Notes: generated from the letters alone by a model not told the origin. A stretch of DNA of 58,652 nucleotides, filler included, from Sphacelaria rigidula (GCA_964200075.2; 10 parts of 10 records of this genome joined end to end with filler, not necessarily neighbours in it); one strand, 5' to 3'; positions 5,877-11,752 are shown, counted from the first letter of the whole stretch. A program made the numbers and translations.

Positions 5877-6433
5877 GTCCGTGCAAGACAGATATGCCAC
5901 TTCAGCCCCATATTTTGTATGAACCCCAAAATATAAAATCGGCTGTTATAAAATCATTATATTTTATATCATATACATTTTAAATATGAGAATAAATATG
6001 TCGAGGAGAGAAAACAGACATATACCCCGCAAAGCCCACCAAACTCTTCAGATTTTGTCAATGTTCATTGATTAATTTCTTGAAACAAAGTTAACAGAAA
6101 ATATTTTTTAAAAACAGGATGATTTTAATTGTCGGAAAAATGCCCTCCGGCATCTGAGGTCATCGGGACAGAACAGGCAAGGAGCAGAAGTAGATACACG
6201 AACCCCACAAAGCCCACCAGACTTTTCCATTTTTGTCAGCGTTTCTTGATGTTTTTTTTGTAACAATAAAAATATTCAAAGCAGTGTTTATTGATCAATT
6301 CCTTGCGAGAAACTTGAAAAAAAAACAATCATGACGATTTTCGAAAAAATACCTTCCGGGAGGGGGGAGGGGGGTGGCTTACGTGTCCGAAACGTTTCGC
6401 TCGACAGACCCTTAAGTGTGCCTACGTTTTGGG

Positions 6434-6628
6434 GTAACCCTTGGACAACGAGAGTAGGTCATCTGTTGAATCGGCATCAATTTCACTCGAAATAAGTGGG
6501 CAAAGTCTAGGTAGACCACGCTCGCGGTCTGAGGGTACTGTATAGGTCACCTTCTGAATCGGCATCAATTTCACTTGAAAAAAATGGGCAAAGTCCAGAT
6601 GGGCTGTCCACATCGTGGTCCAAGGGTT
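6434..6628. mobile_element. piggyBac-type mini-MITE family H, two tandem/overlapping ~100-bp units
   Basis: taacccttgga...taggtcatctgttgaatcggcatcaa...ccaagggtt; homologous to 30134-30238 and 49765-49869. Confidence 0.65.
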
Positions 6629-6689
6629 CGCCGACCTTTGGCTACAATTGTTCATGGTTAACACATTTCAAAGTATTGCTTCCCCGAAC

Positions 6690-7440
6690 CCTAACCCCAA
6701 CCCAACGCATGCCGAGAACCCTCGGGCAATAAGTGCGGTACATAGCATTCCCGAGGCAAAGTACGGCCTTGGTAGACCCCCAACGCATACCGAGAACCCT
6801 CGGGCACTAAGGGCGGTACATACATTCCCCAGGTACAAGACAACCTCTGTATACCCCGAATCGGTGCCTGTGGCGCCGATCTGAACGAACTGTTTTCTAT
6901 GCATGCGAACACGGGACTGTGAGCCCTACTAAAGATCCGATTCTCGTCCTACATACATTCCAGTAGGCATAGTGTGTGTTGGTAGACCCAAAATCGACGC
7001 CGCAGGCGCCGATTTCGACAAAACCACGTTCTGGACGGGCACCTAACCCCGACCCAAGGCGTACGAGACCCTCAGACAAGGGGGGTACATATGTTCCCCT
7101 AGGTATAGTGTGTGTTGGCAGACCTGAAATCGATGCCGCAGGCGCCGACTTCGACGAAAACACGTTCTGAACAAGCAACTCACTCCGACCCAAGCGTGGA
7201 GACTCTTGGACAAGAGGGGTACATGCGTTCCCCTAGGCATAGTGTGCTTTGGCAGACCTGCAATCGATGCCGCAGCCGCCAATTTCGACAGAAACACGTT
7301 CTGGACGAGCACTTAACCCCGACCCGAGGCGTACAAGACCCTAAGACGAGGGGGGTACATGCGTTCCCCCAGTGTGCGTTAGCAGACCTGAAATCGACAC
7401 CGTAGTCGCCGATTGCGACAAAACACTCTCTGGACGAGCT
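6690..7440. repeat. Degenerate tandem repeat, ~135-bp unit, about 5 copies
   Basis: Motifs ccgacccaag, ggggtacat, ggcagacctgaaatcgatgccgca and cacgttctg recur; gaccc anchors at 7051, 7187 and 7321. Confidence 0.85.
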
Positions 7441-7727
7441 GGGTCCACTGCTCACCTGCCCCAAACCATGAATGTTCTCAGCACTTTCTCAAGTCTAAGA
7501 TCTAGTAGTCATGTTGTCAACCATAGATATACGACCAACGCTCTAGATCTACCACTTTTACGTGACAATGGATTATGAACAGACCGTGCCGGCGATGTAA
7601 TACAGCAGGGACGTGCGTGTCATGGGTTCAGAGCTTGCGCGACGGGATAGTGTTCCGGGATGGGAAGAGCCAAATATCATACCAGGATACCGGGAAGCCG
7701 AGTTTGAGATACCTCCATGATGTAACG

Positions 7728-8325
7728 GAGGGTCTGGTACATTTCCGCATGTAAAAGTAATGTTACTCAGTGATATCGTGAAAAACTCCGCATCATATGA
7801 GCGAACTGTAGGTGGGGCAATCGCCGAAATATTCACCTGCAAACTCTGCTCCAGTGCGCTGTAAGTTGATATCGGTAGAAGAGCACTACCATAACCACCT
7901 TGCCGGCTGCCAGACTGTCACGACGTGGGATCCGCTAGCATTGCTTCTGTCTGTACAGGGATGTTGCCCTCTTGTTTGGTACGTTTTGGAGCGTGATACT
8001 AGATGTAGATCATTCTTCCTTGTACATGGGCACCAAGCGCTGGGCGTGTTTACTCAAGACTTTGATTTGAAGGATGCTACTAGGTAGGCAGTAGCAACCG
8101 CTGTGTCCAGGTGCCCCTTGGAGCAGGATGCGTTTAGTGTCTGTTTCAGAAAATCATCCCCGAAAAGACGAAATCAACAGGGGTTTAGAGTGTAAAAATA
8201 TAGCAGAACAATCGTCGCAACAACCGAGTCGCAGAAATCAAGTCGGAAAAATCCTGTCGCAAAAAACGGGTAGTCGAATATATACCCGTAGCAGAAACCA
8301 AGTTTACTTTATGAAAGTTGGAATC
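7728..8325 (+). mobile_element. 3' part of long tRNA-headed SINE-like family E
   Basis: Colinear with ~19968-20520 (gggtctggtacatt...ggcaatcgccgaaatattc...tgtgtccaggtgcc...gcagaaacc). Confidence 0.75.
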
Positions 8326-8514
8326 GTTACCCAACTCTTACAAATAGCTCAGAGGATGAAACGATCGAGGGTATGTTCCAAGATCGTACAACAGACGGTG
8401 GAGCTGAAGCGAAAAGTGCACCCATTCAGCTGTATGCAACACAATATGTGGCCAATACCTACTCACCTCGTCGCAGGGCGCTGTGTTCTGGGCGCACACG
8501 ACTAGACGGGGGGG

Positions 8515-8577
8515 GTACTCATTTGTTGCTTGCCTTAGTCATTTGACCATTGACCACGCATCCCTTTCGAGACGGAG
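8515..8577 (-). mobile_element. 5'-truncated C-tract LINE-like family A copy with 17-bp TSD
   Basis: gtactcatttgttgcttgccttag...cgagacggag flanked by direct repeat cacgactagacgggggg at 8497-8513 and 8578-8594. Confidence 0.85.
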
Positions 8578-9360
8578 CACGACTAGACGGGGGGCAGAAA
8601 AGGAGCAACATCCGGCACATCGACGACCAGCGACGTACGTCGTTTCCGGATAGCCACCCAGACAAATATCGAATAAAGTTGGAGATGCTCTGTTACACTC
8701 GATCCGAGAGCCCCATCGCGGGCCAGCCCTGAGAATAAGGACATATATCCTCGTCCTTCAGAATTATAGAATGAGAAATGACTGGCATTCTCTGGGGATC
8801 GGTTTCGTGTGCCTGGACAAAACCTAGGCCGAACATAATCCTCCCTGTAGCGTGAAAAAACCGTAGACTTCTCAGAGTTCCGTGCACGTCTATACACATC
8901 ATCATTATATTAGTGAAGAAACCTTACAGATGAACCGTAAATATCCAAATACGACGGGCACCATCAATGCTGTGCTTGACCGTGAACCAGTGAAAGTCGA
9001 CATGCGAATATACAGGATGTTTTCGACACACAAGCAGCCGTCACGGCATGACGATCGCCGTATTCAGTAAACATGGCACAACTAGAAATAGCGTCCATCG
9101 CCAAGCCCTGTTGGTGTACCGCAGCGACCTGGAGAGCTAACATAAAATGACAGTCACTGGTACATGGACATCAGGCCCCTCTCTACGAATCCGGAACCAA
9201 GTCAACCTCGACCCCATGCGCAGAAGAACACAATGAAGAGCCAGCTACGCGCGCTCATTTATCACAGCATCGCACCATTTTGCTCACAGTGCCGACAAAA
9301 CAAAACTCAGAGTTTTTCTAGCCCTCCTGCCGCACGAATCCCTTCCCAGTAGATTCAAGA

Positions 9361-11652
9361 TTAGACCAAGGGCGGAGAGGAATGGGATGGTGCCACCTCC
9401 AGCTTAACATTCCGTTTTCCTTCGTCAACCACTGTACCAGTCTCGACCACTGAGGATCTCGATACAGTCGAGGCTACTGTACGACGCCGCTTGGGCCCTC
9501 GTTGATTGGTGGAACAGCGGCAGTCGCTCGCGGATGAAACAGACCGCTCGCTGCTCCTTCGTCCCCCACTGCGCAGACGAGTACGAGGAGAGACAACCAG
9601 CTCTAGCTTCATGCCTGCTTCTTTTGTGGAAATATTTTCACTCTCCGCGGTCGCTTTTCCTGGGATTACCGGAAGCACCGAAGAACGGTGACTACAATTC
9701 TCGCGTACTTCGAGACGAGGACGAACACCACCGCTTGCATCGATACCAATACCATTACATTCTTCGAGGGTTGATTCTCGTCCGTGGATAGCGCCCCCAC
9801 CTCTACTCTCGCCTAGGTCATGATCTAGGGGGGACGCTTCATGGCCGAATGCAGACATGTTAGGCATGGCACCCATTTCGACCGCATGCTCGCGGCAGGA
9901 ATTCATCTTGCTTGTCCCTTCCAGATCGCGCATGATGTGATTCAGGGGGTCCTTCTGGTCACACTTCTTGCTGATGACATTCACCATGCCCGCGCCAGCA
10001 TGTTGAGCGCAGAACTCTCGATGCCTGCTGCCTACCGCGCCGTATGACGGTCGTTTGGAGCAGCCCTCGTGGCCGCATCTCTTGTTCACGACATTCACCA
10101 TGCCCGCGCCAACATGTTGAGCGCAGAACTCCGCCCGCCTGCTGCCTACCGCACCGTGTGACGGCACCTTGGAGCAGCCCTCCTGGCCGCATCTCCTTCT
10201 GCTCAGGACATACACCATGCCCGTGCCAGCATGTTGAGCGCAGAACTCCGCCCGCCTGCTGCCTACCGCACCGTATGACGGCAGCTTGGAGCAGTCCTCC
10301 ACGTCACACCTCTTGCTCACGACATACACCATGCCCGCGCCAGCATGTTGAGCGCAGAATTCCCGATGCCTGCTGCCTATCGCACCGTATGACGGCTGTT
10401 TGGAGCAGCCCTCGTGGCCGCACCTCGTTCTGCTCAGGACATACACCATGCTCGCGCCAGCATGCTGAGCGCAGAACTCCGCCTGCCCGCTGCCTACCGC
10501 ACCGTATGACGGTACCTTCGAGCAGCCCTCCTGGCCACACCTCCTCCTGCTCAGGACATTCACCATGCCCGCGTCAGCATGTTGAGCGCAGAACTCCGCC
10601 CGCCTGCTGCCTACAGCACCGTATGACGGCTGTTTGGAGCAGCCCTCCTGGCCACACCTCCTCCTGCTCAGGACATACACCTTGCCCGCGCCAGCATGTT
10701 GAGCGCAGACCTCAGCCTGCCTGCTGCCTATCGCACCGTATGACGGCTGTTTGGAGCAGCCCTCCTGACCGCACCTCCTCCTGCTCAGGACATTCACCAT
10801 GCCCGTGCCAGCATGTTTAGCACAGAACTCCCGATGCCTGCTGCCTACCGTACCGTATGACGGCTGTTTGGAGCAGCCCTCCTGGCCGCATCTCGTTCGG
10901 CTCATGACGTTCACCATGCCCATGCCAGCATGTTTAGCACAGAACTCGGCCTGCCTGCTGCCTACCGCACCGAATGACGGTACCTTGGAGCAGCCCTCCT
11001 GACCGCACCTCCTCCTGCTCAGGGCATTCACCATGCCCGTGCCAGCATGTTGAGCGCAGAACTCGGCCTGCCTGCTGCCTATCGCACCGTATGACGGCCG
11101 TTTGGAGCAGCCCTCCTGGCCGCATCTCGTTCGGCTCATGACGTTCACCATGCCCATGCCAGCATGTTTAGCACAGAACTCCCGATGCCTACTGCCTACC
11201 GCACCGAATGACGGCACCTTGGAGCAGCCCTCCTGACCGCACCTCCTCCTGCTCAGGACATTCACCATGCCCGCGCCAGCATGTTGAGCGCAGAACTCGG
11301 CGTGCCTGCTGCCTATCGCACCGTATGACGGTCGTTTGGAGCAGCCCTCCTGGCCGCACATCTTGTTCACGACATTCACCATGCCCGCGCCAGCATGTTG
11401 AGCGCAGAATTCCCGATGCCTGCTGCCTATCGCACCGTATGACGGTCGTTTGGAGCAGCCGTCCCGGCCGCACCTCCTCTTGTTCACGACATTTACCTTG
11501 CCCGCGCCAGCATGTTGAGCGCAGAACTCGGCCTGCCTGCTGCCTATCGCACCGTATGACGGCTGTTTGGAGCAGCCCTCCTGACCGCACCTCCTCCTGC
11601 TCAAGACATCCACCATGCCCGTGCCAGCATGTTGAGCGCCGAACTCTGCCTG
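9361..11652 (-). CDS. EsV-1-7 cysteine-rich repeat protein (5'-partial; 14 complete C-X4-C-X16-C-X2-H repeats, one degenerate repeat, low-complexity C-terminus)
   Basis: Uninterrupted ORF open to the contig end. 38-39 aa repeats such as CGQEGCSKQPSYGAVGSRQAEFCAQHAGAGMVNVLSRRR have the EsV-1-7 spacing known from brown algae (Ectocarpus IMM family). C-terminal PKRRR NLS-like motif. Confidence 0.93.
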   Translation of the reverse strand, partial: QAEFGAQHAGTGMVDVLSRRRCGQEGCSKQPSYGAIGSRQAEFCAQHAGAGKVNVVNKRRCGRDGCSKRPSYGAIGSRHREFCAQHAGAGMVNVVNKMCGQEGCSKRPSYGAIGSRHAEFCAQHAGAGMVNVLSRRRCGQEGCSKVPSFGAVGSRHREFCAKHAGMGMVNVMSRTRCGQEGCSKRPSYGAIGSRQAEFCAQHAGTGMVNALSRRRCGQEGCSKVPSFGAVGSRQAEFCAKHAGMGMVNVMSRTRCGQEGCSKQPSYGTVGSRHREFCAKHAGTGMVNVLSRRRCGQEGCSKQPSYGAIGSRQAEVCAQHAGAGKVYVLSRRRCGQEGCSKQPSYGAVGSRRAEFCAQHADAGMVNVLSRRRCGQEGCSKVPSYGAVGSGQAEFCAQHAGASMVYVLSRTRCGHEGCSKQPSYGAIGSRHREFCAQHAGAGMVYVVSKRCDVEDCSKLPSYGAVGSRRAEFCAQHAGTGMVYVLSRRRCGQEGCSKVPSHGAVGSRRAEFCAQHVGAGMVNVVNKRCGHEGCSKRPSYGAVGSRHREFCAQHAGAGMVNVISKKCDQKDPLNHIMRDLEGTSKMNSCREHAVEMGAMPNMSAFGHEASPLDHDLGESRGGGAIHGRESTLEECNGIGIDASGGVRPRLEVRENCSHRSSVLPVIPGKATAESENISTKEAGMKLELVVSPRTRLRSGGRRSSERSVSSASDCRCSTNQRGPKRRRTVASTVSRSSVVETGTVVDEGKRNVKLEVAPSHSSPPLV

Positions 11653-11752
11653 NNNNNNNNNNNNNNNNNNNNNNNNNNNNNNNNNNNNNNNNNNNNTTAA
11701 TTAATTAANNNNNNNNNNNNNNNNNNNNNNNNNNNNNNNNNNNNNNNNNNNN
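11653..11752. other. Artificial contig spacer
   Basis: Same 100-bp spacer. Confidence 0.97.

Follow-up and report, generated by a model that had tools for sequence, protein, structure and literature searches.

An open reading frame on the minus strand of contig C24559 from the brown alga Sphacelaria rigidula (GCA_964200075.2, here G000) raises the question of what a long tandem array of nearly identical EsV-1-7 repeats recognises. This contig piece (window 5877-11652) is one of 10 pieces of about 5.8 kb each that were joined by N spacers into the window, the whole stretch of 58,652 nucleotides that was analysed; features on different pieces are not neighbours, and the study was restricted to this piece. 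The frame (9361..11652, stop codon at 9361-9363) encodes 763 visible amino acid residues (protein P0001) and is intronless in its visible part; the array runs up to the end of the contig, so that the 5' part of the gene is missing. As stated in the initial annotation, the array holds 14 complete repeats of 38-39 residues (9964..11589, minus strand) with the spacing C-x4-C-x16-C-x2-H, and the Pfam model PF19114 matches the protein in 14 stretches (E 1.9e-208; 674 bits against a cut-off of 25). The named homologues heading the list are brown algal, from Sphacelaria, Scytosiphon, Ectocarpus and Pylaiella. That annotation suspected a TALE/PPR-like recognition code, either in a nucleic-acid reader or in a diversifying immune-type receptor. 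Our analysis favours, with moderate confidence, a nuclear regulator that reads DNA sequence-specifically in a modular fashion and by analogy would work like the arrays of PRDM9 and of the KRAB zinc-finger proteins (KRAB-ZFPs).

Re-reading of the frame gave the same residues at position 9 as first listed, QRRVRVQQQVQLVR, encoded by six codons. The alternatives at position 12 (Y/F/H) and positions 19-20 (QA/HR/HA/RA) as well as the variable linkers were likewise recovered; positions 35-36 read VN VN LS MS LS MS LS LS LS LS VS LS VN in the 13 of 14 repeats that could be scored. The repeats share a mean core DNA identity of 0.88 and carry a net charge of 0 to +4. Their reassortment is truly mosaic, as had been proposed, with 70 of 171 pairs of informative sites showing all four gametes and hence failing the four-gamete test. 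The focal gene is an ordinary member of the known EsV-1-7 family, and its array alone proves little. A single array cannot single out a code, and the test was therefore carried out across the family.

The search of G000 with PF19114 yielded 4575 first-look candidates, which makes the focal gene one of very many EsV-1-7 genes in this genome; 150 of the candidates were scored. Eighty contigs from the scored list, which is biased to consensus-like arrays, were combined with five close paralogues and the focal gene. The best frame per contig gave 86 frames with 1177 repeats, among them 82 arrays with at least five repeats (1162 repeats). Diversity at codon positions 1+2 was compared with that at fourfold-degenerate sites of the same arrays as the neutral yardstick, with Bonferroni correction; positions 35 and 36 were scored in 77 arrays, as five had too few complete linkers. 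Only codons 9, 35 and 36 of the 38 exceeded fourfold diversity, in 70/82, 59/77 and 64/77 arrays, respectively, with diversities of 0.46, 0.40 and 0.43 compared to 0.25-0.26 at fourfold sites. In 47 of the 82 arrays, no other position from 1 to 34 varied as much as position 9. The excess persisted for transversions and against neighbouring fourfold sites (65/80, 51/77 and 55/77 arrays for positions 9, 35 and 36). In trees calculated per array (75 arrays), the step ratios, with bootstrap intervals in brackets, were 2.02 [1.82-2.26] for position 9, 1.74 [1.50-1.99] for position 35 and 1.92 [1.71-2.15] for position 36; positions 2, 3, 7, 24, 28, 29 and 33, with ratios of 1.0-1.2, calibrate the baseline, and position 38 was mildly raised (1.30). 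After collapsing the arrays to 13 subfamilies the excess stood in 13/13 (position 9), 13/13 (35) and 11/13 (36). The per-site comparison that had been suggested for the variable residues thus retained position 9 as a candidate specificity residue and added positions 35 and 36 of the linker, but it did not retain positions 12, 19 and 20, which lay below the neutral yardstick (step ratios 0.56, 0.63 and 0.67; above the fourfold baseline in only 19/82, 15/82 and 24/82 arrays).

The same three positions are conserved between orthologues. Collinear arrays were chosen among 221 database homologues by the identity of their scaffolds, which was calculated without columns 9, 35 and 36; pairs with an identity above 0.93 were discarded. 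This resulted in 13 putative groups that lack the nuclease motif, with 114 repeat pairs in total, and in a single nuclease pair. Best tail matches confirmed ten of the 13 groups; two had no tail match and one had a better match outside its group. Identity in orthologous versus non-orthologous repeats was 0.82 and 0.11 at position 9, 0.82 and 0.12 at position 35, 0.93 and 0.29 at position 33, and 0.79 and 0.18 at position 36. No other column of the 38 gained as much; the rank order was 9, 35, 33, 36. Ten control surface positions reached an orthologue identity of 0.48-0.68; positions 9/35/36 averaged 0.81 versus 0.60 for the controls and were ahead in nine of the 13 groups (p=0.021). The strings VYRLQHR and KG NW HR ND TH AH GN, for instance, were kept in four proteins with a scaffold identity of 75% (one of them lacking a scored unit). 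Contact residues of C2H2 fingers are likewise divergent between repeats and fixed between orthologues. Orthologues also keep positions 10, 11, 12 and 20 to a high degree (0.89 for position 12 and 0.87 for position 20), so that 12 and 20 may be of importance for a different reason. G000 orthologues of the homologues P0140 and P0025 were not found among 69 and 94 scored candidates, respectively, and a scan of viral contigs with P0095 gave no match, so that viral orthologues are covered by one pair only.

The domain context of the homologues points to DNA. A C-terminal PD...ExDExxH motif, which reads as a Vsr/EDxHD-like nuclease motif with thin support from profile libraries, is present in 67 of 120 listed homologues of P0001. 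Among eight such proteins scanned, one matches a PHROG homing endonuclease (E 0.0027) and no Pfam nuclease family was found; DUF559 was detected on one further homologue. In a structure search of BFVD with a five-repeat model the top match was EsV-1-7 itself (E 3.8e-20), and the matches also include giant-virus proteins, several of them named Endonuclease. A Tc1/mariner transposase with an N-terminal EsV-1-7 domain has been described (PMC12477816), as has the EDxHD family, whose solved prototype I-Bth0305I carries N-terminal NUMOD motifs (PMC3239194). The residue alphabets of 163 nuclease-fused and 957 algal repeats were compared at the 15 positions variable in both sets. Overlap was highest at positions 37, 8, 36, 9, 38 and 35 (0.63-0.83) and reached 0.16-0.56 at the other nine; the alphabets are R/Q/K/H/L/I at position 9, V/K/R/I at position 35 and N/S/H/K/D/T at position 36. 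The nuclease motif is absent from all 86 G000 frames, the focal one included. Three further database records combine the array with other sequences. P0018, annotated in a record of a green alga (Pedinophyceae) on a 505-kb contig, has an EsV-1-7 array with the nuclease motif and is possibly an endogenised viral gene. In P0176 and P0177 (database gene models) the array is joined to a copia gag domain and a methyltransferase domain, respectively, and these joins may be annotation fusions.

The repeat unit was modelled fairly confidently by AlphaFold2, with a mean predicted local distance difference test (pLDDT) of 85 for five repeats and 79 for one. The models contain short strands at residues 12-14 and 31-33 and no helix of at least four residues; the five-repeat model had a predicted template modelling score of 0.41, with unsettled inter-repeat geometry. 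All four Cys3His residues are invariant in the two repeat alignments examined (A1 and A2). The best matches of the single unit among solved folds are RING and ArfGAP fingers, a fold which we take to be a treble-clef zinc finger; these matches are weak (Z 2.0-2.8, root-mean-square deviation 2.5-4.2 Å, 38-44 aligned residues; top match Z 2.8, 2.5 Å, 38 residues). Foldseek found nothing at E<=0.001 among solved structures, which does not show a new fold. Sequence searches for solved relatives gave no match for the five-repeat profile and five chance-level matches (E 1-1.9) for one unit, and the ESM Atlas gave no usable match. A search of G000 for a THAP-like fold was without signal, and as the controls were equally silent it was uninformative. 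No alpha-helical TALE or PPR repeat family was matched in Pfam. The TALE/PPR likeness of the initial annotation holds as an analogy only: short strands take the place of a helical hairpin in this small Cys3His unit. Within arrays, the mutual information between position 36 of one repeat and position 9 of the next reached z 3.7 (controls 2.6-2.7). The coupling of positions 9 and 33 ranked 3 of 744 in the pooled data but 89-165 in subsets; direct-coupling ranks are unstable, and hence no spatial claim is made for positions 9, 35 and 36. In alignment A2, 33 of 141 units weakly match the Pfam family Zf_WRKY19 (best E 0.00035, first Cys pair only), a possible distant relative.

The C-terminal tail of the focal protein (9364..9849, minus strand) is rich in Ser, Arg and Gly, about 160 residues long, and shares 74-77% DNA identity with five G000 paralogues. 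It contains the psi-K-x-E motifs MKLE (9601..9612, about 83 residues before the C-terminus) and VKLE (9397..9408, 15 residues before it), presumably SUMO-acceptor consensus sites, and the basic motif RGPKRRR (9481..9501), taken here as resembling a nuclear localisation signal (NLS). Across complete G000 tails, psi-K-x-E occurs in 65/69 (8.6 in shuffled sequences), mostly as two copies at around -90 and -15 relative to the C-terminus. The motif K[KR]x[KR] was detected in 58/69 (11.9 shuffled); we assume the two to represent the SUMO and NLS consensus. In database homologues without the nuclease motif psi-K-x-E was found in 21/48 tails (7.4 shuffled) with varied x; seven of these 21 are labelled with a single species name and are possibly closely related to the G000 genes. 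Nuclease tails have it in 10/67 (18.5 shuffled). An EAR-like LxLxL motif was considered for the tails and rejected, as it occurs in 4/69 tails versus 1.9 in shuffled sequences.

From these observations the following mode of action can be proposed. Each Cys3His unit of 38-39 residues, with its four invariant ligands, probably binds zinc, and the basic array would track along double-stranded DNA. Conserved K/R residues at positions 8 and 37-38 may contact the backbone, and residues 9, 35 and 36, possibly joined by 33, would be the main determinants of sequence preference, as putative base contacts. Intragenic recombination or gene conversion, visible in the mosaicism, would shuffle repeat halves. 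Selection, of which the statistics above are the trace, would favour new residues at positions 9/35/36 in young arrays and hold them once a target is fixed. The tail, using its NLS-like motif and two SUMO-consensus sites, would most likely recruit regulatory, probably repressive, machinery. The evolutionary signature at positions 9/35/36 is a property of the family as observed; base contacts by these residues, DNA as the ligand, a nuclear location and SUMOylation are predictions from sequence.

Several points weigh against the array being a DNA reader and regulator. The case for DNA as the ligand and for the reading of bases is argued from evolution and homologue context, and repression by the array protein is something we purely infer. 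Within the focal array by itself, the number of parsimony steps at position 9 is equalled at positions 20, 29, 33 and 35 (2.0-2.5 each). The arrays also depend on one another: only 30 of 82 show a higher identity internally than towards their closest paralogue, although the focal array does so relative to four close ones (0.88 against 0.82-0.86). The loosest clustering leaves only five subfamilies (5/5, p=0.06), at which power is lost. Tails, too, share descent, and thus the motif counts are not independent. Four of the 13 orthogroups run opposite to the fingerprint. In 24 nuclease-fused arrays positions 9 (0.78) and 35 (0.77) are barely above positions 11, 7 and 14 (0.73-0.76), and position 36 (0.67) is not outstanding. 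Val accounts for 49% of the residues at position 35 in algal repeats, and hydrophobic residues are frequent at position 9, a composition that would also suit a protein surface. Finally, the excess at positions 9/35/36 is about twofold and far below the ratio of non-synonymous to synonymous substitution (dN/dS) at PRDM9 contact sites, although the two measures differ.

A bolder form of the DNA-reader proposal, which we regard as doubtful, is that EsV-1-7 is a further independent programmable DNA scaffold with a per-repeat cipher at positions 9/35/36 (and 33). In brown algae it would derive from giant-virus homing nucleases, a SUMO-acceptor tail would have replaced the nuclease, and hundreds of fast-turnover genes would recognise and silence transposons and endogenous viruses. 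In this form the arrays would amount to a counterpart of the KRAB-ZFPs that arose by convergence in a lineage which reportedly lacks 5-methylcytosine, H3K9me and H3K27me3. Six G000 arrays (L091, L079, L104, L067, L100 and L086) have near-uniform strings at position 9, mostly R, Q, L or Y, and L091 also has mostly VD at positions 35-36. If the cipher were true, such near-uniform arrays should bind simple repeats.

An unlikely explanation, raised by the initial annotation without direct support emerging here, is a diversifying protein-binding or immune-type receptor, comparable to LRR or TPR arrays, whose variable positions would provide a binding surface for proteins of viruses or pathogens. 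Diversifying selection at a few surface positions together with repeat shuffling is typical of immune repeat proteins and fits the pattern found here; hydrophobic residues are common at positions 9 and 35, and the weak fold matches, RING and ArfGAP, are protein-interaction modules. Against such a receptor, Pfam detects no signalling or effector domain in the 763 visible residues of P0001, and a preprint (10.64898/2026.04.27.720984) reports no other Pfam domains in Ectocarpus members. Moreover, the repeats are basic (+3 per unit) and the tails of nuclear type, and the fingerprints are conserved between orthologues with an alphabet common to nuclease-fused arrays.

It is similarly improbable that the array is a modular RNA reader, PPR- or CCCH-like, in which each unit would read single-stranded RNA bases via positions 33 and 36 plus 9. 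The Cys3His ligand set would suit this function, as would the small polar residues at position 33 (N/D) and position 36, the PPR code using an N/D/S/T alphabet; the selection signature by itself cannot tell DNA from RNA. The fusion partners found here or described in the literature, the nuclease motif and the transposase, nevertheless act on DNA, and the models lack the helical PPR fold.

Still less probable is the absence of any code. Positions 9/35/36 would then simply be free of constraint, and their diversity would stem from gene conversion between long-established repeat types, from a local mutation bias or from constraint on synonymous sites. Nearby fourfold sites do show a somewhat elevated diversity (0.41 at codon 7 and 0.33 at codon 32), arrays draw on common repeat pools, and trees are distorted by recombination. 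Relaxed constraint should, however, level off at the neutral rate, as at the other surface positions (1.0-1.2), and positions 9/35/36 exceed it at 1.7-2.0, also for transversions and against local controls. Unconstrained sites should furthermore not be among the best conserved between orthologues.

A false mosaic stitched together by a short-read assembler is very improbable: the assembly is fragmented (27214 contigs) and the contig ends inside the array, but the frame is intact over 14 units, exact internal repeats are no longer than 82 nt, the tail and the start of unit 14 were matched in four of four read runs (comparison covering window 7500-10077), and the same pattern recurs in 82 arrays and in proteins of other species.

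Among the known systems that come close are PRDM9 and the KRAB-ZFPs, with which the family shares a long tandem finger array and an excess of non-synonymous change at a few fixed positions that are conserved between orthologues. The unit of those proteins is a C2H2 finger with a recognition helix, whereas the focal unit is Cys3His and 38 residues long, its excess is weaker, and neither a KRAB nor a SET domain was found by Pfam in the visible 763 residues, the 5' end being missing. In PRDM9, selection concentrates at three positions per unit under concerted evolution, with a contact-site dN/dS of 8-32 (PMC2779102); KRAB-ZFPs show lineage-specific expansion with conserved and fast-turnover members (PMC4592553), and selection on C2H2 contact residues is described in both sources. 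The giant-virus fusions of EsV-1-7 arrays to a Vsr-like (EDxHD-type) endonuclease have the same repeat and the same alphabets at positions 8, 9 and 35-38; they differ from the G000 frames, which carry a SUMO/NLS-motif tail instead. TALE and PPR proteins consist of alpha-helical repeats with a one-repeat-one-base cipher. EsV-1-7 arrays share with TALE, STAR and PPR arrays the near-identical repeats, few variable residues and shuffling, in EsV-1-7 with a variable di-residue (35-36), but their unit has short strands and almost no helix in place of an alpha-helical hairpin. A one-repeat-one-base cipher is also reported for the STAR repeat reader (PMC11417379).

The focal gene has 14 copies of the motif that defines the EsV-1-7 family, known from Ectocarpus IMM and protein 7 of the virus EsV-1. 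The family is expanded in brown algae (up to 335 genes) and clustered (10.1101/2024.02.19.579948), and forms the largest brown algal orthogroup (10.64898/2026.04.27.720984); expansion, clustering and a likely viral link are in print (10.1101/2024.02.19.579948; 10.64898/2026.04.27.720984; PMC7457493; PMC12993054). According to 10.1101/2025.04.25.649966, it was Macaisne et al. (2017) who hypothesised that the family consists of zinc-finger transcription factors; 10.1101/2024.02.19.579948 and PMC12477816, in their available parts, go no further than calling EsV-1-7 a possible new class of zinc finger. The accessible portions of this literature contain no mention of specificity positions, of diversifying selection, of homogenised repeats or of SUMO/NLS tails. 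A literature search, with subscription journals mostly outside its coverage, gave no paper that deals with such positions, with selection or with SUMO tails in the family. The family-wide three-position signature appears to be new.

The remaining features of the locus lie on both sides of the array. At the contig end, a partial degenerate first unit (11590..11652, minus strand) has Gly in place of the third Cys and is truncated; the adjoining 11653..11752 is an artificial spacer between contigs (N44, 12 letters, N44) and not genome sequence. Among 40 candidates scored out of 371, none on another contig continues the array with near-identical sequence. Between array and tail, a decayed 15th unit (9850..9963, minus strand) has lost its second Cys, and comparable decayed terminal units occur in paralogues. 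Downstream of the stop codon, 8875..9360 (minus strand) may be a 3' untranslated region. In two runs guessed to be RNA (from one study; no run is recorded as RNA), single contigs span 8962-10005 and 8875-10005, a weak hint of transcription. Runs X1 and X9 lack depth in several bins (8188-8445, 8618-8789) covered by X4 and X8, which proves nothing alone. The remainder of the contig consists of repeats without another long frame and the gene is therefore read as a host gene and not as part of a proviral stretch; an Rfam scan of the contig gave no match. A short, extremely high-copy element (8496-8594), without an Rfam match, lies between 17-bp direct repeats, and a contig of run X8 connects 8496 to 8578 without it, so that it looks like a polymorphic insertion with target-site duplication. 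A tandem repeat with a period of 136 bp and 3.7 copies occupies 6950-7439, and the high-copy repeat fragments at 7586-8187, in which runs X4 and X8 show several joints, are probably a decayed transposon.

The EsV-1-7 family includes the developmental regulator IMM, and with three candidate specificity positions and a SUMO/NLS-motif tail the question of its ligand becomes directly testable by residue swaps. The lineage of brown algae is reported in PMC12477816 to be without 5-methylcytosine, H3K9me and H3K27me3, and its transposon silencing is described there as largely unknown. If the arrays are indeed DNA readers, they would offer a compact modular DNA-binding scaffold already fused to nucleases in nature, and would represent a large hidden class of sequence-specific regulators in brown algae. 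They would then also be candidates for the layer that directs the silencing of transposons and viruses to its targets.

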